Below, one piece after another: positions 2,793-14,281 of a stretch of 37,093 nt of DNA. Made by a program: the position numbers and the translations under genes. Position 1 is the stretch's first letter, and every line of letters begins with the position of its first letter. Source of the DNA: a virus (lineage: Duplodnaviria > Heunggongvirae > Uroviricota > Caudoviricetes); the IMG/VR virus record IMGVR_UViG_2740892211_000019, one strand, 5' to 3'. Under the pieces are notes generated by a model. It made no database searches, was not told where the DNA came from, and worked only from the letters and a program-made list of their open reading frames with translations.

Positions 2793-3143
2793 ATGAAACT
2801 ACAGCGCAATTCTTCACAGCAGCGCTTCCGCAACGGTGCGGAACGCCATGCTAACCGTTTCGCTACCAGTGCATCACGTAGCAACTCTCGCTACAGCCTG
2901 AGCGAAACACACGCAACGCCGGATGGCTACCCAGTAAAACAAATTGGTGAACACACTTGGCTGATTGAAAAAGCAGGAATCGTGGTTCACAGATGCCAGC
3001 GCAACCCATTTACCGGAAACCGCATTTTTGCACTGAGCAACGGCGACAATCAGTTCGGGCAGGATTTCACATTGTACGAAGCACTTCGCACAGTTGATCG
3101 TCTGCTTCGCGGACAAAGTTTTATTAAACAGGCTGATTTATAA
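2793..3143 (+). CDS. Hypothetical early protein
   Basis: ORF track; co-directional tight packing with following early ORFs. Confidence 0.5.
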   Translation: MKLQRNSSQQRFRNGAERHANRFATSASRSNSRYSLSETHATPDGYPVKQIGEHTWLIEKAGIVVHRCQRNPFTGNRIFALSNGDNQFGQDFTLYEALRTVDRLLRGQSFIKQADL

Positions 3144-3153
3144 CAGGTGCTTT

Positions 3154-3432
3154 ATGACCAAAGAGCATGCACAAGGTGTATTTATTCGTTTTATTGATTT
3201 TCGCGGTGAACTGTTATTACGCGCATCAGCTATTGATGGAGTCGTTCCATCCGAAAAAAATGCAGCTACTTACGTTTATCTGAACGGCACGCGCCTGACC
3301 GTAGAACTTCCGTACCAGACTGTACACGAAATCATTAGCGAAGCGGAAAAAGCACGTAAGACTAATGGCGATGAACCCTATATCGAAATTATTTGTATGG
3401 ATTCAGAAGCAGAAATTCAGAAAGCAGATTAA
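3154..3432 (+). CDS. Hypothetical early protein
   Basis: ATG at 3154 (MTKEHAQGVF...) within ORF 3094..3432; tight spacing after the previous gene. Confidence 0.5.
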   Translation: MTKEHAQGVFIRFIDFRGELLLRASAIDGVVPSEKNAATYVYLNGTRLTVELPYQTVHEIISEAEKARKTNGDEPYIEIICMDSEAEIQKAD

Positions 3433-3443
3433 AGGGCGTTGCG

Positions 3444-3686
3444 ATGGGCAAAGAATATAAAACTCTCATTAATAAAGCACTTGAGCGTTTTTATTTTCGC
3501 TTAAGTGCATCAGGCGCTCATGCTGAACGTGCAGCCCGTGACTCATTGACCAGGGCAATCCGGAGTCTGTATGACGTGGCTTTTTACGCTGATGATCTGG
3601 ATGCACTTAACGAACTTTCCGAGCTGATCTGTGCCGCAGAATGCGGGGAACATATTGAACCGTATAAGCTGGGGAATATTGCATGA
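3444..3686 (+). CDS. Hypothetical early protein
   Basis: ATG at 3444 (MGKEYKTLINK...) within ORF 3393..3686. Confidence 0.5.
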   Translation: MGKEYKTLINKALERFYFRLSASGAHAERAARDSLTRAIRSLYDVAFYADDLDALNELSELICAAECGEHIEPYKLGNIA

Positions 3687-3796
3687 GTATATTTATCTCA
3701 TGGCTTGTTCTGATTATTTCGGTGGTCTGCGCCATTGGGATTATGCGAATTATTAATTCAGTGAAAAAGATCGAGCGTTTTTTCTCTGATGAATAA
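3683..3796 (+). CDS. Small hydrophobic peptide (37 aa, single predicted TM helix), translationally coupled
   Basis: ATGA start/stop overlap with the preceding ORF at 3683..3686. Hand translation gives MSIFISWLVLIISVVCAIGIMRIINSVKKIERFFSDE. Below the 60-aa cutoff of the ORF track. Confidence 0.35.
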   Translation: MSIFISWLVLIISVVCAIGIMRIINSVKKIERFFSDE

Positions 3797-3888
3797 CGAT
3801 ACAAATAAAACATCAAATTAAATAAGAAAACGTGAAAACCATCCGTATTAACGGAGGTATTCGCACACGTAAATAATGGAGATATAAA

Positions 3889-4155
3889 ATGAACGCAAAA
3901 GAAGAAGGCATTATCAACACATTAAAAAAAATATCAGAAGCGGAAGATGAAATGGCTAAAGATGCCGTGAAGCGTAGCCAACATATGGCAGCACTTCACG
4001 CACTGACCATCGCAAAAATCACCGCTGACGCAGCCAAAATTATTGAGGAACAGGGCAAAGAAATCGACACTCTTAAAACACAGTCAACAGTTGCAGCCAT
4101 GAATCCGTCCAGCATTGGACGCCGCATTTACATTCTTGGTTCGGCAAATACCTGA
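3889..4155 (+). CDS. Hypothetical early protein
   Basis: ORF track; RBS GGAG about 8 nt upstream of the ATG. Confidence 0.5.
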   Translation: MNAKEEGIINTLKKISEAEDEMAKDAVKRSQHMAALHALTIAKITADAAKIIEEQGKEIDTLKTQSTVAAMNPSSIGRRIYILGSANT

Positions 4156-4288
4156 TAACGCCTTACCACACAAAGGAGTCAGAGCTTCTGACAAATCTCC
4201 GCCTGATAGAACGCTCTCAAGCTGTATTCATTGATGACGCGCAACGTGCCGTATTTAACGCATAGGGTTACTGGACAAAGGGGGCGCA

Positions 4289-4492
4289 ATGGCAATTAAG
4301 CATTTTCCCGTCGTTCGCTTTACCTCCAGAGGGCGCGAATACGAGGTCGACGAACGCCTGATTACCACTATCGACAAACATCGTTCGGAAAAGGATGCAC
4401 ACCACATCTACCTCACTGACGGCACTTACTTCTGCGCCACCAACGTGGCGCGGGTGAATCTTATCCGACAGGTACAGGAGCCACGCAGATGA
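4289..4492 (+). CDS. Hypothetical early protein
   Basis: ORF track; stop overlaps the start of the next ORF (4489). Confidence 0.5.
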   Translation: MAIKHFPVVRFTSRGREYEVDERLITTIDKHRSEKDAHHIYLTDGTYFCATNVARVNLIRQVQEPRR

Positions 4493-4755
4493 CCATTCTG
4501 GACTACATCGCTACTCATCCGGGGTGTAGCGGCGGAGAGATCGCCGCAGCACTGAATACTCCAACCACAGCCATTAATGCTGAGTTACGCCAACTTTGGC
4601 GCGGCGGCTTAGTCATCAGAACAAACCGCAGCACAGGTGGTCGCGCTCGCAAAACTGGAGGCCAGGCTTCTTACCACGTAAACCCGATGCCGTTCGGGTG
4701 TAGCAATCCACTTACTCACATGTTTAACCAGCTACTGAAGGAAGCCAGAGCATGA
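4489..4755 (+). CDS. Hypothetical protein, possible winged-helix DNA-binding protein
   Basis: ORF track; overlapping start/stop with both neighbours indicates translational coupling. Fold assignment is only a guess from sequence character. Confidence 0.45.
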   Translation: MTILDYIATHPGCSGGEIAAALNTPTTAINAELRQLWRGGLVIRTNRSTGGRARKTGGQASYHVNPMPFGCSNPLTHMFNQLLKEARA

Positions 4756-6048: not shown

Positions 6049-8871
6049 ATGACGGCAGAGTACATCAGGGACTGGCAACAACCGCGCCACGCAGTGGGAC
6101 GTGAAGGAACGGGGATCCCCGTTCCTGAATCCGCGCTTTCCTCCTGGCTGGATGCCTACCGGGCAGAGAACGAGCGCCGCCAGGAAATGGCTGATGCGGC
6201 GTTCTCCGCCACGCCGCTGGGCAACCTGATTAATAAAAGCCTGGATGCACAGGAAAAACAGGACAAAACCATCACACTGGCAGGAGACGCCAGAAAACAG
6301 GTACGCGGTGCGGTGGATGAAGCCATGGCCTCGCTGCGCCTGCTGCCGTCCTATCTGCGCGATCCGCTTATTCGCCACCTCTCCTTCCTGCGCAAAAAAC
6401 AGGAAGCCGATCGCCGGAAAGGCAAAAAGAGCTGGCAGGCTGAACGCTACGCGCGCGGAACCCTGCGCAAAATATTCGAACGTCTGGACCGCACCGACCA
6501 CCGCTGGCTGACACCGGGTTATCGCTCCCTTGCCGGACGCGAACGCCTGGATGATTTGCTTTACCTGCCGCAGCTCAACAAGCACCAGATACAGACGCTG
6601 GCCACCATGACGGCGGCGATGTTCAGCAGCACCTTCGAAAAACTCTGCGATGGCTTTGGCGCGACTGATGGCGAGCTGACCATGGATGTAACGCTGAAGG
6701 CGTATCAGATGCTGGCCCGCATGGCGTTACACCTGCACGCCATGCCTCCGCATTATGACGCACTGACAACAGACAAAGACCGGAGGAACGAACCGGACAC
6801 GGAGCTGCTGCCGGGCGCAATCCTTCGCCTGACCTGTGCGGAATGGTGGAAACGCAAACTGTGGCTGTTACGTTGCGAGTGGCGGGAAGAACAACTCCGC
6901 GCCGCCTGTCTGGTTTCCAGAAAAACATCGCCCTATCTGAGCCAGGACGCGTTAAGCGAGTTTCGCGCACAGCGCGAGAAAACACGCGATTTCCTGAAAA
7001 GTTTCATGCTGGAAAACGAAGACGGGTTCACGATTGATCTCGAGACGGTGTATTACGCGGGAGTAAGTAACCCGGTTCACCGTAAGGCAGAAATGATGGC
7101 CACCATGAAGGGGCTGGAACTTCTGGCCGAAGCCCGTGGCGACAAAGCGGTGTTTCTGACTGTCACCTGCCCGTCAAAATACCACGCCACAACAGAGAAC
7201 GGTCATCCGAATCCCAAATGGAACGGGGCCACCATGCGCGACTCCAGCGATTACCTGGTTAACACGTTTTTTGCGGCGGTCCGCAAGAAACTGAACCGCG
7301 ACGGCCTGCGCTGGTATGGCATCCGCACGGTGGAGCCTCACCATGACGGCACCGTGCACTGGCATATGATGGTCTTTGCTCATCCGGAAGAAATCGACAC
7401 CATTGTGTCCCACACCCGCGATATTGCCATTCAGGAAGATCGTCACGAGCTGGGTGATGATATTACCCCACGCTTTAAGGCGGAGTACGTCGACGGCTCA
7501 AAAGGCACACCGACCAGCTACATCGCCACCTACATCGGGAAAAACCTGGACAGCCGTGCCGTGGATGGCATCGACCCGAAAACGGGCAAGCCACGCGTTG
7601 ACCACGAAACCGGAAAATCAATGGCCGAGAGCGTGGAACGCGCCATCGGCTGGGCGCGCCTTCACCGGGTCCGCCAGTTCCAGTTCTTTGGTATCCCCTC
7701 CCGTCAGGTGTGGCGTGAACTGCGCCGCCTTGCCAGCCAGATGGCTCGCAACCCGGAAGGACCGCAACGGCTGAAGGATGACGCAATGGACGCGGTTCTT
7801 GCTGCCGCTGATGCCGGATGTTTTGCCACCTACATAGAGAAACAGGGCGGCGTACTTGTTCCACGCAAGGACTACCTGATTCGCACCGCCTACGACCTCG
7901 CCGATGAGCTGAACGATTACGGTGAACAGAGCGTACAGATTTACGGGATCTGGTCACCGCTCATCGGGGAGTCTTCCCGCGTATGCACGCATCCGGACAA
8001 CTGGAAGCTGGTAAGACGCAAACCGGAAGCGGAAGACAGCGCCCGCGAAAATGGTTTTGACCTTCAGGGCGGCCCTGCCGCACCTTGGACTCGTGGCAAT
8101 AACTGTCCCCGTGTACAGGAAACGGACAACAACGGGACAGAACAGCCGGAAGAACGGCCAGCACCGTGGCCGCAGCTTCCTGACGGCGTTGACGTGAACG
8201 AATGGATGCGCTCACTGAAACGGCACGAACGCCGGGCGCTGATGCGTTCGCTGCGTGACAAACAGGCAAAAAACAGCAGTGATGAAATGCAGAGCTGGAC
8301 ACAGAGCCGCAAACAGCAGCGGCCTTTGCCTGATAACCACGAATTACTCGCTAAAGAATGGCGGGAATCTGCCGAATCTCTCGGCCTGCATATCGGTGAA
8401 CAGCAGATGCAGCACCTGTTACGGGGCGGCAGCCTGTACGTTGACGGCAGCATCATTGCACCGCAGGGATTTGAAATTGTACGCAAACCGGATACCCGCC
8501 CGGACAGCCGAATCACGCAGCTCTGGCAGCGCCTGAGCCGTAATCACGGCGTAAGCAGCACGGAGATCCGCCATAACCCGGTCGCCAGCTATCTGGAACA
8601 GCTGGGGGCATCAGACCCCGAAGCCGCCGCACGTCTGGCATCCACACTTCAGCAGGACCAGAACACCATGAACCCCCCCGTTACCGTGCTTTCTGACATG
8701 CTGCGCGCCATCCGCGACGCAGAGCACGCACAGAGAATCAGTGAAACCACTGAACGTGCCCGCCGCAAAGCAGACCTGCTGCGGGGTGGCCTGACCAGTG
8801 GAAACAAAAAACAGACAGAAACGGGATTCACAAATCCCGTAAATGAGCAAAAAACGCGCCGCGATATATGA
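6049..8871 (+). CDS. A: Replication initiation endonuclease (P2 gpA-like rolling-circle initiator), 940 aa
   Basis: ORF track. Contains the HUH-type metal-binding motif (HHDGTVHWHMMVF) and a tyrosine-bearing block (TSYIATYIGKN) typical of P2 A-family initiators; position matches P2 synteny. Longer than my recollection of P2 gpA. Confidence 0.9.
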   Translation: MTAEYIRDWQQPRHAVGREGTGIPVPESALSSWLDAYRAENERRQEMADAAFSATPLGNLINKSLDAQEKQDKTITLAGDARKQVRGAVDEAMASLRLLPSYLRDPLIRHLSFLRKKQEADRRKGKKSWQAERYARGTLRKIFERLDRTDHRWLTPGYRSLAGRERLDDLLYLPQLNKHQIQTLATMTAAMFSSTFEKLCDGFGATDGELTMDVTLKAYQMLARMALHLHAMPPHYDALTTDKDRRNEPDTELLPGAILRLTCAEWWKRKLWLLRCEWREEQLRAACLVSRKTSPYLSQDALSEFRAQREKTRDFLKSFMLENEDGFTIDLETVYYAGVSNPVHRKAEMMATMKGLELLAEARGDKAVFLTVTCPSKYHATTENGHPNPKWNGATMRDSSDYLVNTFFAAVRKKLNRDGLRWYGIRTVEPHHDGTVHWHMMVFAHPEEIDTIVSHTRDIAIQEDRHELGDDITPRFKAEYVDGSKGTPTSYIATYIGKNLDSRAVDGIDPKTGKPRVDHETGKSMAESVERAIGWARLHRVRQFQFFGIPSRQVWRELRRLASQMARNPEGPQRLKDDAMDAVLAAADAGCFATYIEKQGGVLVPRKDYLIRTAYDLADELNDYGEQSVQIYGIWSPLIGESSRVCTHPDNWKLVRRKPEAEDSARENGFDLQGGPAAPWTRGNNCPRVQETDNNGTEQPEERPAPWPQLPDGVDVNEWMRSLKRHERRALMRSLRDKQAKNSSDEMQSWTQSRKQQRPLPDNHELLAKEWRESAESLGLHIGEQQMQHLLRGGSLYVDGSIIAPQGFEIVRKPDTRPDSRITQLWQRLSRNHGVSSTEIRHNPVASYLEQLGASDPEAAARLASTLQQDQNTMNPPVTVLSDMLRAIRDAEHAQRISETTERARRKADLLRGGLTSGNKKQTETGFTNPVNEQKTRRDI

Positions 8872-8918
8872 AGCGCACACAAAACAGGCAAAAACGGGAT
8901 TTCAGAATCCCGTAAACG
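8818..8918. repeat. Two copies of a ~28-bp palindromic unit (AAACGGGATT-N5-AATCCCGTAAA) about 73 bp apart, directly upstream of parM
   Basis: Copy 1 at 8818..8848 lies inside the last codons of gpA; copy 2 at 8891..8918 overlaps a possible -35/-10 for parM. Read directly from the sequence. Confidence 0.5.
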
Positions 8919-8947
8919 ATTAATTAATCAACATAAGGAAAAGCGAC

Positions 8948-9907
8948 ATGAAAATTTGTATCGACGACGGCTCCACCAACATCAAGCTGGCATGGACTGA
9001 GAATGGCGAACGCCGCAACGCCATCAGCCCGAACAGCTTCAAGTCGGAATGGTCTGCGCCGTTCGGTGGCATGCAGCCCGCGAACTACATGCTTGATGGC
9101 GTGCGCTATGGTTTTGATCCGGTCAGCGATCGCTTTGTCCAGACGACCGACACGCAATACCAGTACAGCGATGTGAATGTAATCGCCATTCATCACGCGC
9201 TGGTCAAATCAGGCATCACGCCACAGGAGGTGGATGTGGTTGTCACCCTGCCACTGAGCGAGTATTTCGACACAAACGCACAGCCGGACATGGCCAACAT
9301 CAACCGCAAAAAAGCGAACGTTATGCGCCCGGTGGAGTACCAGAACGGCGAAGCATTCACTATCCGTAACGTGCGGGTTATGCCTGAATCCATTCCGGCT
9401 GGCTTTAAAGCACTGGCTGACATGAGTCCGTTTGAATCCCTGCTGATTGTGGATTTAGGCGGAACCACGCTGGATGTGGCAAAGGTTCAGGGGCAACTGG
9501 CAGGTATCAGCCAGGTGTTTTGCGATCCACACGTAGGCGTCTCCCTGATGGCCGGTGCCGTGCTGTCGGTGATGGCCGCTAACGGTATGCGTACCAGTCA
9601 CCACATCGCCAATACCATTATCGAACATCGCCATGATGAAGCCTGGTTGCGCCAACACATCCACAATGACGCGCATTACGCCAGCCTGATGGCGGTTATT
9701 CGTGAAAAGGAAGAAACACTGAAACAACGCGTGATCCGCGCGCTGGCGGGTTTTTCGGGTTACGGGCGGGTGATGGTTGTCGGTGGCGGGGCGGAGATTG
9801 TGGCACCCGCTATCCGCGAAGCCTGCGGAGTTAATGCGACTTTCATCGCGGACGGGGTGCCACAGTTTGCTCTGGTTAATGGGCTGTACGCAATGGACAA
9901 GGAGTAA
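8948..9907 (+). CDS. parM: ParM/StbA-family actin-like ATPase (type II plasmid partition NTPase)
   Basis: Translation carries the ParM signature blocks as I recall them from plasmid R1 StbA/ParM: CIDDGSTNIKLAW, YSDVNVIAIHHAL, VMPESIPAGF, LLIVDLGGTTLDVAKV, VMVVGGGAE. RBS AAGGAAAAG before the ATG at 8948. Confidence 0.85.
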   Translation: MKICIDDGSTNIKLAWTENGERRNAISPNSFKSEWSAPFGGMQPANYMLDGVRYGFDPVSDRFVQTTDTQYQYSDVNVIAIHHALVKSGITPQEVDVVVTLPLSEYFDTNAQPDMANINRKKANVMRPVEYQNGEAFTIRNVRVMPESIPAGFKALADMSPFESLLIVDLGGTTLDVAKVQGQLAGISQVFCDPHVGVSLMAGAVLSVMAANGMRTSHHIANTIIEHRHDEAWLRQHIHNDAHYASLMAVIREKEETLKQRVIRALAGFSGYGRVMVVGGGAEIVAPAIREACGVNATFIADGVPQFALVNGLYAMDKE

Positions 9908-9911
9908 ACCA

Positions 9912-10226
9912 ATGACGACACCAACCAGACGGATAAGTTTCTATCTGAAGCCAGTCGCCGTCAATAGTGAACGGGAGGCGTGTAATTACCTCGACAGCCT
10001 GCCAGCCTCTGAACGCAGCCGCGCGCAACGCGCGGCCTTTCTGGCCGGGCTGGCACTCATAAAACGCGATCCTGCATTTGCCTATTGGTTGGCCGAATGG
10101 CCGGAAGAAGGAGCTGCGCCAGCCAAGAATAATATTCAGAGTAAATATGCCAGCACACCTGCCACCGGAAGCAATCACAGCACTAGCGAGATAAGAAAGA
10201 ACATTCAGTCATTTTTCCCAGAGTGA
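9912..10226 (+). CDS. parR: ParR/StbB-like centromere-binding protein (ribbon-helix-helix)
   Basis: ATG at 9912 with AAGGAG upstream, 4 nt after the parM stop. N-terminal beta-strand-like RISFYLKPV, then LDSLPASERSRAQRAAFLAGLAL, which closely matches my recollection of the R1 ParR core. Confidence 0.7.
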   Translation: MTTPTRRISFYLKPVAVNSEREACNYLDSLPASERSRAQRAAFLAGLALIKRDPAFAYWLAEWPEEGAAPAKNNIQSKYASTPATGSNHSTSEIRKNIQSFFPE

Positions 10227-10245
10227 AAACAGGAGAGGAGCATCT

Positions 10246-10707
10246 ATGGCAACTATCCCCAAAAAATGGTTACAACGCAAAATTGCAGACCTTGAATCGT
10301 GTCGTGAAGACATCCCGTTTGGCCTTGATGAAAACGATCACAATATGTTAATCGCACTGAAAATCGCACTCACATCGCTGGAAGCAGAGGCAGTTATGTT
10401 CTGTATATCAGGACAAAATGTAGATTCAGAAGAACATGTATCAACCAGCAAAGCGGTTGTTGATGCCTGGGTTGAAGAATGGAATCAGGTTGACGGAAGT
10501 CCTGGCGAACCACTGTACAAAACTATGCCACTCTACTATCACGCTGCCTTGCCAGCGCCGGTAGTGCCGGAAGAAGCAACTCCGGAAAACGTAGAAATGC
10601 TCTCTGGCTATGTTTCCACATACAAATTAACCGATAGCGAGCGCGATATTGCTGCCGAAATATGGAACGCCTGCCGCGCCGCTATGCTTCATGGGAAAGG
10701 AGAGTGA
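10246..10707 (+). CDS. Hypothetical acidic protein (153 aa), third gene of the parMR operon
   Basis: ORF track; RBS AGGAGAGGAG before the ATG at 10246. No family recognised. Confidence 0.6.
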   Translation: MATIPKKWLQRKIADLESCREDIPFGLDENDHNMLIALKIALTSLEAEAVMFCISGQNVDSEEHVSTSKAVVDAWVEEWNQVDGSPGEPLYKTMPLYYHAALPAPVVPEEATPENVEMLSGYVSTYKLTDSERDIAAEIWNACRAAMLHGKGE

Positions 10708-10708
10708 T

Positions 10709-10972
10709 ATGGCAACTTTAACAAAAAAAGAACGGGCATGGTTGAACGAATTACAGGACGTTCTTGATCGCTGCCCATCACCGAAAAAAATTGGTTTTTA
10801 CACCATTGGCGATAAAAGCATTTACCTGTATGACCTGCGCCGCATGGATGAAATCATGGAGGCTCTTGATAATCGTTCGTCAATGGATTGGTGTGTTGCT
10901 GTCCATGATATGAATGCAGGGTTTGATGAAAAGATTTTGTTCCCCTCATCAGTTGAAAGCACAGCAGGATAA
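10709..10972 (+). CDS. Hypothetical protein (87 aa), fourth gene of the parMR operon
   Basis: ATG at 10709 (MATLTKKERAWLNELQ...) one nt after the previous stop, with GGAAAGGAGAG upstream. No family recognised. Confidence 0.55.
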   Translation: MATLTKKERAWLNELQDVLDRCPSPKKIGFYTIGDKSIYLYDLRRMDEIMEALDNRSSMDWCVAVHDMNAGFDEKILFPSSVESTAG

Positions 10973-11006
10973 GGACCCAGCCAATATACACAACCTATAA
11001 AACACT

Positions 11007-11033
11007 AAAGCGCCTCAGGGGCGCTTTTTGTTT
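11007..11033 (+). terminator. Rho-independent terminator (AGCGCC-tcagg-GGCGCT followed by TTTTTGTTT)
   Basis: Hairpin plus T-tract read directly from the sequence, downstream of the four-gene operon. Confidence 0.7.
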
Positions 11034-11060
11034 GCACAAAAGTGCACAAATTTGCACAAT
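11033..11060. repeat. Three TGCACAA(A/T) repeats at exact 10-bp phasing
   Basis: Copies start at 11033, 11043 and 11053, immediately after the terminator and within the region where the cos site is expected. Confidence 0.5.
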
Positions 11061-11483
11061 TTTTTTGAACGACTTTTTACCCTTCCGGCCCGCATGGCGG
11101 CTGGATCCGTCAAGGATCCGTGCGTGCACAAAAAAACGCGCTTTTTCTACGCGCAGGTGACGGGGGAACAGCCCGCGTTTCAGGGGGTAAATAGCATTCC
11201 CTGAACGATGTCGCAGAGATACAACAGAATGGCTGTATTTCTCACGCTGAGCGTGAAAAAGACGTGAGGGCTTTTGATTTGATGGGGTGAAAGGTAAGGC
11301 CGTCAAAATCGCACTGAGACGGCGAGAACATGCAGTCAACGCGGTGGGATTGCGTAAGAGTCTGGCTGTCGATGATGGCAATAAGCAGGAAAGCGTCGTG
11401 AAATTATCTGATTGATACAGGAGCTGGAGAGTCGGGGCATAAATTTTTTATGCCCCGGCGAAGCAGCAGACAAGCGAAGCGCG

Positions 11484-12530
11484 TCAGGATGTGGGCTGGG
11501 TGTCCAGCAGTGCATAAGGGTTAAAGCGGATCACCTCTTCGCCAAGCCAGTCATTGATGTGCTTCATGGCCTCCATGACGGGCATCAGCTCGTTAATTGC
11601 GTAAACCCGCGCGGCCTTCTCCACATCACCAAACGCACTTTTTTCGCCCGGCATCGCCCCCATCAGTTGCGGCGGAACGCGGTGCGCAGCCAGCACATCA
11701 TCACGGGATGCCGCCTTAACATTCATGAACTCATCCTTTGCGGTGATCTGCTGGAACGGCAAAATTTGCACCCCCTCTTTGCCCCCGTTGGGCGCATGGA
11801 TGAGCACGTTTTTAAACGCACCACCACCACGCGCACCCTGTAGCGTTTCTTTCAGGGAGTCCATGCTTTCGCGGTTTACCTGCGCTGCACCGATGTAGAT
11901 GATGCACCCGGCGTGGGATCCATTGTCGTAATACAGTTTTCTGAACATGTCCGCCGAATGAGACAGGCTGGCCGAGAGTAATGCGCCAAGATATTCCGGC
12001 ATGCCGTAAATTTCCTGGTTAATGTCAGGATTCATCAGGTGGCACACTTTGCCAGGGCGAAACTGAAACGCGTCCTTGCCATCCTGCACATACCACCATG
12101 ATTCAAGATCGCTTCCGCGTCGCATGTATTTCGCCAGGGCGTGCCGTAATTTAAGCGGTTCGCCGAGCATATTGCTTCGAAGCTCAAGGAATGCGTTACC
12201 GAACACAAACCAGTCCAGCGCCAGCGCCGAGAAATCCTGCCGGGAAAGCAGCGGGTGCGGAATATAGCAGCCGAGCAATACATTGCGCTTAAAGTAAAGC
12301 GCAGACTGATGCCAGGACGTTTGCCGGGCAGCTCTTGCCAGACCGTACCAGTCCACCGGGGTTTCGTACCACCGCCCGTTATCAGCACAGTACATATTGT
12401 CCAGCAGGTCATGCCCGGTCAGGCGATAAGGACCATCAAATGTGAATGCACTGAGCGATGATTCTTTCCTGAGCGCATCAGCGAGATCAATGCGTGAACT
12501 CATGCGCACTTTTTTATTTTTTCTGCTCAT
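11484..12530 (-). CDS. Q: Portal protein (P2 gpQ-like)
   Basis: ORF track, 348 aa. Size and position match P2 gpQ; overlaps the large terminase gene by 1 nt. Confidence 0.85.
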   Translation of the reverse strand: MSRKNKKVRMSSRIDLADALRKESSLSAFTFDGPYRLTGHDLLDNMYCADNGRWYETPVDWYGLARAARQTSWHQSALYFKRNVLLGCYIPHPLLSRQDFSALALDWFVFGNAFLELRSNMLGEPLKLRHALAKYMRRGSDLESWWYVQDGKDAFQFRPGKVCHLMNPDINQEIYGMPEYLGALLSASLSHSADMFRKLYYDNGSHAGCIIYIGAAQVNRESMDSLKETLQGARGGGAFKNVLIHAPNGGKEGVQILPFQQITAKDEFMNVKAASRDDVLAAHRVPPQLMGAMPGEKSAFGDVEKAARVYAINELMPVMEAMKHINDWLGEEVIRFNPYALLDTQPTS

Positions 12531-14281
12531 CAGAACTCCATAACCGTGAAACGCTCGTTTTCTCCTTCGCCGCCAATCGGTTCGTTAATGACAGCAAGCA
12601 TGGTTGCCCACGCAAGGTCGCCGTGGCTGATCCCCCTCGCTCGGTCCGTTTCGTAAGTGATAAAGCCGCCCGGTGTTTTCACCTTACGCACGGCGTTAAA
12701 GGCCGCGACCAGCTCGCGTTCGGCGCGATCGTATTCCCACCGCCCGGCACGCATTATTTGCAGCATTTTCAGTACCAGCGACCGTTTTGATGACAGCGTG
12801 AAGGTGTACGGAATAGCAGCAGGGAAAAACCGTTTCACTATCTGATAAACAGCCTCCCCGTTCCCGCCCGTCACATCAATGCCGATGTGTTCCACGTTGT
12901 AGCGATACGTGAACTCTTCAATGACTCTGGCCTGTTCTTCAAACTCCAGCCCCTGAACGCGTCGCGTCTCCACCGTTCGAAAACGGCCACCAGGAACAGC
13001 CGGAGGAACCACCACGGACACAGCGCCGCTGTCGCCGTTGCCACTGCTGCCGTTTGCGTCATACCCAATCCATACTGGACGATTCCCCATCGGGCGGGGA
13101 GCAAAAGGTTTCCAGTCTTTCCAGTCGTCGTATCCGTCAACACCGCAGCCAATCAGGATATTCAGGTTAAATGCCGATTCCCCTTCGCGGACAAACTCAC
13201 ACATATAGAGATTGAGGAACTCGTCTTCGGTGTTTTCATCACGAATTTCGTCGATATCGGTGTGTTTCCAGCCGTGATTGACCACATCTTCCAGCGTGAC
13301 AATTTGCCGCCATGTCCGGTCAGGGCAGATAAGCCCGTTATGCAGCGTTTTCCAGTCCACAGAAAAACGCTGGCGTTTATGCGAGGCCTTTTTCTCGTTC
13401 CAGCGGTCGCCGTTCCAGTAGGCGTATGCCTCGTGCGTTTCGGTGGATGGCGTGGAGAAGTAGGTGCGCCGCAATCCGCTGAGGGTTGCCATAGCGCCAG
13501 CCACCTTGCGCAGTTCAGCAAAGCGACTGACCCAGAAAAATTCATCAAAATAAAAATTGCCCGTATAGGACTGTGCCGACGCAGCAGAAGTGCCGAGAAA
13601 ATGCAGCTCTGCGCCGTTGGAGAGGATGATTTTATCGCCCCCTTTCAGCTCCACATCAACTTCAGCCGCGGCCTTCTGAATAATGCTTTTAAACTGGAAC
13701 GCCTGACGACGCGACGCAGACAAAAAAATCTGGTTACGCTGGTAAGGTTGCGCCACATCGTCACGCAGCGCCATCAGCAGTGCTTCCTGTGCAAAATACC
13801 AGGTCGCCCCAATCTGTCGGGATTTCAGGATCATCCTGTTACGTATCCCGGCTTCCCTGCAAAGAGTCAGGGAGTCAAACCAGCCCCGCTGATGCCACTC
13901 CAGCCTGCTGATGATTTTTTCCCGCAGTGCAGCAATCTGTTCCGGCGTGAAATGATTTTTAAGTTTTTTCGCCCGGCCTTTCTTTCCTGTGGCCGTCGCA
14001 TCTGGCTGGCCATCATGCAGTTTTTTAAGCTGCCGGGTCAGCAGGTCTATTTCCTTGAAGTCACCACCTGTTTTATTCTGTTTTTCAGTAAGCTGGATGA
14101 GGCGCGCATCGATGGACTGCGTGACACGCTGCACGGGTGGCGTTTCATCCCACTGGTCGCGTTTTTTCCACGCATAAATCGTGTTCGGGTTTATTCCCAT
14201 CAGACGTGAGATTTCTGCGGGCGGATAACCCTGCCAGTAAAGTTGCCGCGCACGCTGGCGCACAAAAGCGTCCTGAATCAT
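12530..14281 (-). CDS. P: Terminase large (ATPase) subunit (P2 gpP-like)
   Basis: ORF track, 583 aa. Size and synteny match P2 gpP, divergent from the O-N-M-L operon. Confidence 0.85.
   Translation of the reverse strand: MIQDAFVRQRARQLYWQGYPPAEISRLMGINPNTIYAWKKRDQWDETPPVQRVTQSIDARLIQLTEKQNKTGGDFKEIDLLTRQLKKLHDGQPDATATGKKGRAKKLKNHFTPEQIAALREKIISRLEWHQRGWFDSLTLCREAGIRNRMILKSRQIGATWYFAQEALLMALRDDVAQPYQRNQIFLSASRRQAFQFKSIIQKAAAEVDVELKGGDKIILSNGAELHFLGTSAASAQSYTGNFYFDEFFWVSRFAELRKVAGAMATLSGLRRTYFSTPSTETHEAYAYWNGDRWNEKKASHKRQRFSVDWKTLHNGLICPDRTWRQIVTLEDVVNHGWKHTDIDEIRDENTEDEFLNLYMCEFVREGESAFNLNILIGCGVDGYDDWKDWKPFAPRPMGNRPVWIGYDANGSSGNGDSGAVSVVVPPAVPGGRFRTVETRRVQGLEFEEQARVIEEFTYRYNVEHIGIDVTGGNGEAVYQIVKRFFPAAIPYTFTLSSKRSLVLKMLQIMRAGRWEYDRAERELVAAFNAVRKVKTPGGFITYETDRARGISHGDLAWATMLAVINEPIGGEGENERFTVMEF

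Follow-up and report, generated by a model that had tools for sequence, protein, structure and literature searches.

Where did two small acidic genes lying directly downstream of a partition system in a P2-like prophage come from, and what might they do there? The genes in question, ORF153 and ORF87, occupy positions 10246-10972 of IMG/VR virus record IMGVR_UViG_2740892211_000019, a stretch of 37,093 nucleotides that was analysed as a whole and is called the window here; it comprises an entire prophage of the P2 family, belonging to the P88/Xuanwuvirus type. The original prediction treated the pair as orphans and as prime candidates for anti-phage effectors, anti-defence proteins or partition accessories. 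Our analysis places both genes in known phage families. ORF153 is a mosaic in which modules have been swapped in situ, purifying selection is evident, and the pair is independent of the parMR partition genes. The cassette is made up of new combinations and members of phage accessory families that are already catalogued and is not a new system.

The account we favor is that ORF153 and ORF87 form a cassette drawn from the early accessory genes that temperate enterobacterial phages have in common, the stock from which the ea, exo-xis and nin-like regions of lambda, Stx and P22-like phages are filled. Its slot between gpA and gpQ, after parMR, would be renewed through homologous recombination with co-resident lambdoid prophages, and the recombination sites would be strings that also serve as translation starts or linkers (SLEAE, PAPVVPE, AAAGGAGAGTGAtATG and GGATAAGGA). 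Both genes would be read through from the gpA-parMR transcript and translationally coupled, and their products would bind a host or defence component on behalf of the phage during lytic development. ORF87 would bind through a conserved CPSxxxGFYTxGD surface and an invariant C-terminal glycine tail, and ORF153 would act as an oligomerising scaffold with interchangeable binding modules, in the manner of Ea22. Taken jointly, the family identity, the recombinational origin and a phage-beneficial direction that modulates the host or its defences make up an account that we consider somewhat probable.

Family, conservation and distribution of ORF87

ORF87 (10709-10972, plus strand; 87 amino acids from an ATG) encodes a small acidic alpha/beta protein of PHROG 1714, the orf87 family of phages L and ST64T. 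The profile match runs from end to end (9.6e-51, residues 1-87 against profile positions 1-87 of 87). Phages L and ST64T carry their own copy, orf87, which has the same length of 87 amino acids and shares the CPSPKKIGFYTIGD and FPSxVESTAG motifs; the ST64T copy is 58.6% identical to ORF87. Similarly, gp43 of Chivirus FSL SP-030 is annotated as “similar to ST64T Orf-87.” The claim that the pair had no recognisable family holds for Pfam, NCBIfam, PADLOC and the sequences of the PDB, where ORF87 found no match (E up to 1 in PADLOC), but not for the PHROGs, which recognise ORF87 (PHROG 1714) as well as ORF153 (PHROGs 5117, 660 and 60). PDB searches gave no match either with the single sequence or with a profile, and Pfam searches with 50 divergent and 10 longer or fused relatives of ORF87 returned chance-level matches or none. 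The word “orphan” no longer suits either gene: ORF87 is the orf87 of L and ST64T, and the modules of ORF153 are common to ead/Ea22-like, EaA and DUF551 proteins.

A word-indexed search returned 132 homologues of ORF87, and an exhaustive profile search returned 202 clusters at 50% identity. Almost all of these clusters are stand-alone proteins of 80-90 residues in which the exact length and terminus are kept; the fused relatives either result from read-through of a preceding Ea22-like gene or have no known domain attached. In an alignment of 37 sequences, mean column identity is 67%, and the conserved parts are the loop R-C-P-S-P-K-K-I-G-F-Y-T-I-G-D, the segment Y-D-L-R and the tail F-P-S-x-V-E-S-T-A-G. 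C22, P23, G29, G34, Y41, D42, F78, P79 and G87 are invariant in the close set, and W11, G34 and G87 stay invariant in 50 representatives with 28-60% identity to ORF87. Every aligned homologue ends in glycine (...S-T-[ACSV]-G). Since the codon for G87 varies among GGA, GGT and GGC, the constraint on this residue acts at least partly at the protein level.

When the gene was compared with nine homologues taken from other phages and genera, pS values were 0.36-0.87, which is near saturation, pN values were 0.05-0.34, and dN/dS was 0.07-0.26 where it could be measured. These values indicate strong purifying selection on ORF87 across genera, and both conservation and a codon-level coding signal are present in the relatives of the cassette. 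The predicted fold is alpha/beta and confident, with the C-terminal tail as its least confident part. A Foldseek search of this model against the PDB gave a best E of 1.0, and a search against BFVD gave one significant match, an unnamed viral protein of 93 residues (E 2.9e-6, 31% identity).

Among 5,426 complete E. coli genomes, ORF87 is found in 978 (18%; at least 90% nucleotide identity), with 1,196 copies in total, up to four per genome, 90 of which are on plasmids. Carriers include P22-like phages (ST64T, L and Emek), lambdoid phages and P2-like phages, together with phages of Klebsiella, Serratia, Aeromonas, Vibrio and Yersinia. Homologues also occur in Chivirus members (about 59 kb) and in the Vequintavirinae phage Av-05 (121 kb; Avunavirus), where they adjoin nucleotide-metabolism or DNA-polymerase genes; in Av-05, the gene just 3' of the ORF87 homologue is a member of the ORF153 family. 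Within the early-left operon of ST64T, orf87 is flanked by ead and eaA. The ST64T and L genes sit in an early operon among ea-type mosaic genes, whereas ORF87 of the window lies in a P2-family prophage, 3' of parMR, as the final gene before a terminator. The upstream neighbour is unrelated in PhiR44_2, FSL SP-030, Av-05 and Pectobacterium, so ORF87 has no constant partner; in the Pectobacterium P2-like prophage, it directly follows a gpA-type gene with neither parMR nor a relative of ORF153 beside it. Copies with 100% protein identity were also seen on short contigs in metagenome-assembled genomes of Segatella copri and Collinsella (three loci), which are most likely mis-binned E. coli phage contigs.

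Modular organization of ORF153

ORF153 (10246-10707, plus strand; 153 amino acids from an ATG) is an acidic three-module chimera of a mosaic family linked to Ea22, EaA and DUF551 proteins. It matches PHROG 5117 (6.2e-27, residues 1-151) and PHROGs 660 and 60, with no match in Pfam (E up to 1), NCBIfam or PADLOC (E up to 1). None was found among PDB sequences either, a set that should include the structure of the lambda Ea22 C-terminal domain.

The mosaic nature of the gene is visible at both the protein and the DNA level. Nearly all of its 444 homologues are partial, and the limits of the protein matches cluster at residues 27-42, 109 and 148-153. At the DNA level, E. coli genomes contain overlapping pieces of the gene (nucleotides 1-140, 128-328 and 306-462, each 97-100% identical), which places the breakpoints at nucleotides 128-140 and 306-328; such pieces occur in 547 genomes, and the full-length gene occurs in 15 of the 5,426. 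The family alignment contains unrelated alternatives at each of the three positions, held together by the conserved linkers IALASLEAEP, APPAPVVPE and CRAAMLxGKGE. These patterns make ORF153 one combination among many in a module-shuffling family.

The N-module (10246-10385, plus strand; residues 1 to about 47) is a predicted helical hairpin that ends in the linker IAL(A/T)SLEAE. In amino-acid sequence it is about 52% identical to the beginning of ST64T EaA, and the comparison with ST64T eaA gives a pS of 0.72 and a pN of 0.23. The middle and C-terminal modules (10386-10695, plus strand; residues about 48-150) are joined by the proline-rich linker LPAPVVPE; a lambdoid copy shows four synonymous differences from them and one that is non-synonymous. 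Elsewhere, the same modules stand behind Ead_Ea22 domains in two homologues and before DUF551 domains in two others. Homologues that bear PF13935 align to ORF153 only from residue 34-42 or so onward, and DUF551 homologues align only through residues 148-150 and then extend further. The AF2 model of the whole protein is poor (mean pLDDT 59.6); its only fairly confident part is the N-terminal hairpin, with helices at residues 6-22 and 29-46 that have block-mean pLDDT values of 76-87.

Two known groups of proteins invite comparison. Ea22 proteins (ead/Ea22-like, PF13935) of lambda and Stx phages resemble ORF153 in being acidic, mosaic and encoded in early regions, and in their +GE end, a tripeptide that corresponds to the C-terminus ...HGKGE of ORF153. 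However, they have an Ead_Ea22 N-terminal/coiled-coil domain (PF13935) that ORF153 lacks in Pfam searches with E up to 1, and the solved C-terminal domain of lambda Ea22 has no sequence match to ORF153. The second group is formed by EaA (DUF550) and DUF551 proteins, such as ST64T gp09 and gp08 and YfdS-type proteins. The ORF153 N-module, MATIPKKWLQRKIADLESCREDIPFGLDE...ALTSLEAE, resembles the N-terminus of ST64T EaA, and the C-terminal module up to CRAAML is common to many DUF551 (PF04448) proteins. Pfam finds neither DUF550 nor DUF551 in ORF153, which stops at KGE where the EaA and DUF551 proteins run on. As a side observation, the Stx2a phage Stx2_716 carries a mosaic gene with the middle module (2893-3342 of locus L018) followed by minus-strand transposase-like open reading frames (3383-4540); the mosaic array of Stx2a phages may be interrupted by an insertion sequence.

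Module exchange and boundary strings

A P2-like prophage of E. coli O104:H4 2011C-3493 reveals the exchange of modules in place. It carries parM, parR, a 143-amino-acid open reading frame and ORF87. Up to 10385 it agrees with the window at 98.4% identity, with the first 140 nucleotides of ORF153 being 100% identical; between 10386 and 10695 the two are unrelated, and from 10696 onward the identity is 97.5%. Identity is 10-57% over 10380-10692 and 87-100% afterwards, which shows that exactly the middle and C-terminal modules of ORF153 have been replaced. The swap is limited on the left by the SLEAE linker and on the right by the KGE/ribosome-binding-site junction. Positions 10361-10975 of the window in turn match the lambdoid phage vB_EcoS-689R5 at 98.7% identity; in that phage, the pair is annotated as “Ea22 protein” and “hypothetical protein” and lies between replication gene O and antiterminator Q.

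The right-hand junction, AAAGGAGAGTGAtATG (10696-10711, plus strand), comprises the K-G-E codons, the stop codon, a Shine-Dalgarno sequence and the start of ORF87, and it is also found 5' of ORF87 homologues that follow unrelated genes at three other loci. The string AAAGGAGAGTGA(t/g)ATG joins an upstream gene to ORF87 or its neighbours in the window, 689R5, Erwinia dacicola and PhiR44_2. In PhiR44_2, that upstream gene encodes an unrelated protein of 163 amino acids that still ends in ...GIRIKGE; a similar arrangement exists in one E. coli genome, annotated as “XF1762 family protein.” The ea22 gene of lambda (NC_001416, about 29847) ends in the same string, GGCATTCGCATCAAAGGAGAGTGAGATC, with ATC at the start-codon position and no gene after it. 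All Ea22 proteins have been reported to end in K/R-G-E, a feature whose significance was termed unknown (PMC7093339). Our comparison of junctions suggests that the +GE tripeptide is a translated inter-cassette junction, one that bears the ribosome-binding site for the gene that follows.

A second junction, GCAGGATAAGGA...ATG, joins ORF87 to the next mosaic gene, which starts with MTTITKE in most loci. According to a comparison of the 3' junctions of 12 loci, the window retains a relic of this junction, GCAGGATAAGGAcccagccaATA (10967-10990, plus strand). In other phages, GGATAAGGA..ATG opens the next mosaic gene; the window has ATA at this position, and no gene follows. The two genes of the cassette also resemble each other at their own starts, which are 82% identical over 22 nucleotides: TATGGCAACTATCCCCAAAAAA at 10245-10266 (MATIPKK) and TATGGCAACTTTAACAAAAAAA at 10708-10729 (MATLTKK). 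MTTITKE is the start of many genes of the mosaic family. A common 5' string of this kind could be the reason why ORF153-type genes precede ORF87 in some phages and follow it in others.

The site of the cassette is itself known for variation. The cos-proximal locus between gpA and gpQ is a variation hotspot in P2-like phages, about a quarter of which carry a partition system there (Rousset et al. 2022, PMC9122126), which supports the proposed location in a hotspot. The hotspot table of that study lists WP_000201248 and WP_000224227 as “hypothetical” beside StbA and Plasmid_stab_B (PMC9122126), and we find that these two entries are the exact ORF153 and ORF87 proteins of the window. The locus that holds the cassette is bordered by the genes for the replication endonuclease and the portal, and the cargo at this place differs among P88, 520873, 569R5, PhiR44_2 and the window. 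The variable segment extends from the 3' half of parR (about 10058-10108) to about 11008-11033, with blastn similarity resuming at 11019 in P88, at 11008 in 520873 and at 11033 in 569R5. On the left side, similarity in parR ends at about 10057 (P88 and PhiR44_2) or about 10108 (520873 and 569R5), both within the coding region, which means that the C-terminal third to half of ParR belongs to the exchangeable segment.

Gene order and expression signals

The cassette is preceded on the plus strand by a gpA-type replication endonuclease of 940 amino acids (6049-8871), by parM, which encodes an actin-like segregation ATPase (8948-9907; PF06406 2.7e-82, PF21523 1.6e-67), and by a gene for a parR/StbB-type adaptor (9912-10226; PF10784 Plasmid_stab_B, 3.8e-25). 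An intrinsic terminator, identified by a terminator scan and RNA folding, follows at 11007-11036 (plus strand), just where the similarity to P88-like phages sets in again, and the genes for the portal (11484-12530) and the large terminase (12530-14281) lie on the opposite strand. The gaps are 4 nucleotides between parM and parR and 19 nucleotides between parR and ORF153. ORF153 ends with a TGA at 10705-10707, a single base follows at 10708, and the ATG of ORF87 begins at 10709, leaving a gap of 1 nucleotide. The listed open reading frame for ORF87 is longer, since it starts with a TTG and spans 10649-10972; the 87-residue form is counted from the ATG at 10709.

The physical description in the original prediction, of two acidic genes with good ribosome-binding sites, a 1-nucleotide gap and a clean terminator, agrees with the values obtained here for charge, Shine-Dalgarno sites, coordinates and RNA folding. 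ORF153 has a pI of 4.56 (26 D+E against 12 K+R), and ORF87 has a pI of 4.83 (15 against 11). The ribosome-binding site of ORF153 is aacAGGAGAGGAGcatctATG; that of ORF87 is gggAAAGGAGagtgatATG, and its Shine-Dalgarno sequence AAAGGAG lies within the final K-G-E codons of ORF153. The terminator consists of a 9-bp GC-rich stem (11007-11027) followed by the T-run TTTTTGTTTG; its predicted RNA fold has an energy of -16.3 kcal/mol (z = -4.0), which was equalled by none of 200 shuffles.

A simple consensus scan found no promoter-like sites on the plus strand of 8700-11600, and the only terminator-like sites on this strand upstream of 11007 are two weak stems of five pairs, both within parM. Co-transcription of ORF153 and ORF87 with gpA-parMR is therefore plausible. 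The GC content of ORF153 (0.47) and ORF87 (0.42) is lower than that of parM (0.555) and gpA (0.58), which marks the two genes as foreign to parMR.

Just past the terminator, positions 11031-11063 hold a cluster of TGCACAA repeats that form a 17-nucleotide palindrome, AAAAGTGCACAAATTTGCACAATTTT. This region is conserved in P88-like phages and adjoins the portal gene, presumably near cos, and the palindrome may be a protein-binding site. A scan with Rfam gave just one sub-threshold chance match (11425-11478), outside ORF153 and ORF87.

Proposed functional role and alternative explanations

Both families are found in early or replication-linked blocks of temperate phages and also in apparently virulent phages, a distribution that favours a role benefiting the phage. 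ORF153-type genes diversify through module exchange and ORF87 is tightly conserved, a pattern that we also counted toward the proposed account. On the evidence of sequence and context, the likeliest role for the cassette proteins would be an early one that helps the phage by modulating the host or its defences. The only studied relatives of the cassette genes are the Ea22 proteins, which are early-transcribed, acidic, tetrameric and mosaic and which favour lysogeny and host survival (PMC7093339, PMC10834534). For orf87, EaA and the DUF551 modules, our literature search turned up no functional data beyond the Ea22 and YfdS papers.

Several points weigh against the account of a phage-beneficial cassette. 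The evidence for its functional part consists of distribution and context. We take the Chivirus and Avunavirus phages to be strictly virulent on the basis of their taxa. The poor model of ORF153, with its mean pLDDT of 59.6, gives the picture of a scaffold with modules no structural support. Transcription of the cassette in lysogens from a ParR-regulated promoter 5' of parM is conceivable and would fit a prophage-borne benefit to the host; on this point the simple promoter scan carries little weight in either direction. Finally, several unannotated cargo genes of P2 and P4 at the hotspot have proved to be defence systems (PMC9122126, PMC13586616).

Alternatively, ORF153 might be an Ea22-type pro-lysogenic regulator of the lysis-lysogeny decision or of P2-like prophage induction, with ORF87 as an unrelated passenger. 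The middle and C-terminal modules and the KGE end, which ORF153 has in common with proteins annotated as “ead/Ea22-like” or “Ea22 protein,” agree with this explanation, as does the preference of lambda and Stx Ea22 for lysogeny and host survival. However, ORF153 lacks PF13935, which is the part that the studied Ea22 proteins have in common, and has no match to the solved C-terminal domain of lambda Ea22. An ORF153-family gene is also present in Av-05, which is taken as virulent and would therefore face no lysogeny decision, and the lysogeny switches of P2-type and lambda-type phages are unrelated. We regard this explanation as unlikely, while giving it some weight.

A different idea, to which we attach a similarly low degree of belief, is that ORF87 is the founder of an undescribed counter-defence or host-takeover family. 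The basis for it is the confidently predicted fold without a counterpart among solved structures, the conserved surface loop, the terminal glycine and the range of carriers, temperate as well as apparently virulent, in Enterobacterales, Vibrio and Aeromonas. More speculatively, the free C-terminal tail of ORF87 might plug, or act as a decoy for, some host enzyme specific for C-terminal glycines, for example in the ubiquitin-like conjugation machinery found in bacterial immunity. Should the counter-defence idea be true, the neighbouring ORF153-type proteins would amount to a combinatorial set of binders directed at further host targets.

The possibility that the cassette is a prophage system for anti-phage defence or superinfection exclusion, like tin and old in the P2 hotspot, appears improbable. 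The cassette does occupy the gpA-gpQ hotspot, and it resembles the cargo of the tin/old locus in its position by cos and in a content that varies among close relatives. Of eight tested P4 loci that contained only genes of unknown function, six protected, and 15-32% of unknown P2 proteins were predicted to be defensive (PMC13586616). Nevertheless, tin, old and retrons are defence cargo, whereas the cassette carries no defence mark, PADLOC matches included, and comes from the early-gene pool of other phages. Most copies of both families belong to early operons in lambdoid and P22-like phages and do not occupy moron-type positions, and both families have members in apparently virulent phages. ORF153 and ORF87 are not a fixed pair and have no promoter of their own detected in the consensus scan, and neither of these small acidic proteins has a recognisable enzymatic or sensor domain. 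The suggestion that they are anti-phage effectors is unlikely to hold.

We consider it equally improbable that the genes are near-neutral hitchhikers, carried along by easily recombining boundary sequences and functionless in the prophage. The cassette has clearly been moved by recombination at boundary strings, its downstream junction is a truncated relic, and the exact combination of modules in ORF153 is rare, all of which would fit passive carriage. Against this stand the strong purifying selection on ORF87 across genera, the exact length and terminus kept in its 202 clusters, and the intactness of ORF153, whose differences from the donor are mostly synonymous.

Relation to the partition system

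That ORF153 and ORF87 are accessory factors of ParMR, for instance centromere or filament regulators, could be argued from their position directly 3' of parR, with which they probably share a transcript and translational coupling. Their distribution contradicts it. A gene for parM is present in 1,279 of the 5,426 E. coli genomes, the junction between parR and the N-module in 62, and the junction of ORF87, terminator and backbone in 91. The cassette is thus found in about 5-7% of the genomes that bear parMR, and fewer than 10% of the genomes that bear ORF87 have it at this site. In P88, 520873 and 569R5, this parMR is accompanied by different cargo. Over 90% of the copies of ORF87, and almost every ORF153 module, are found where parMR is missing, in the genomes of lambdoid phages, P22-like phages, phage-plasmids and apparently virulent phages, and the GC content of the cassette is foreign to parMR, as noted above. 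The check for co-occurrence with parMR that had been suggested shows no tie between the genes across these genomes. Because the cassette is rare among parMR genomes and ORF87 lies mostly elsewhere, the two genes are not partition accessories; this very improbable explanation is effectively excluded by the counts for parM, the cassette and ORF87 (1,279, 62-91 and 978 genomes). Least probable of all is a toxin-antitoxin pair or related addiction module acting to keep the prophage stable, as two small, tightly coupled genes adjoining a partition system might suggest: the pairing is not conserved, the gene 5' of ORF87 varies and ORF87 stands alone in almost all of its 202 clusters, both proteins are acidic, and no toxin-antitoxin family was matched in Pfam, NCBIfam or PADLOC, which effectively excludes it.

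Two further observations concern the partition system itself. Among 1,443 copies of parM, 1,441 are chromosomal, so that P2-like elements bearing parM are almost always integrated despite their plasmid-type partition system; this bias bears on the idea that the partition system lets P2-like elements persist as plasmids. In addition, two direct repeats of 43 nucleotides, 81% identical and 73 nucleotides apart (8804-8846 and 8877-8919, plus strand; repeat families D1 and I1), straddle the stop codon of gpA just 5' of parM. Each holds a hairpin, ACGGGATTnnnnAATCCCGT / AAACGGGATTnnnnAATCCCGTAAA, and the pair is also present in the PhiR44_2, 569R5, O104:H4 and BEC1-S17-ESBL-09 loci. These repeats could be a parC-like centromere or an operator for ParR, or they could be related to the P2-type origin.

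Significance

These findings indicate that the cassette is ordinary phage accessory cargo, and that flagging it as a new defence system or partition factor is unwarranted. It offers a clean, dated case in which short conserved boundary strings allow unrelated phage types to exchange single protein modules, here from lambdoid to P2-like, inside one host. The junction model would account simply for the +GE end of Ea22 proteins. ORF87, which is common, strongly conserved and without a structural match, is a reasonable candidate for inclusion in screens for anti-defence and host-takeover functions.

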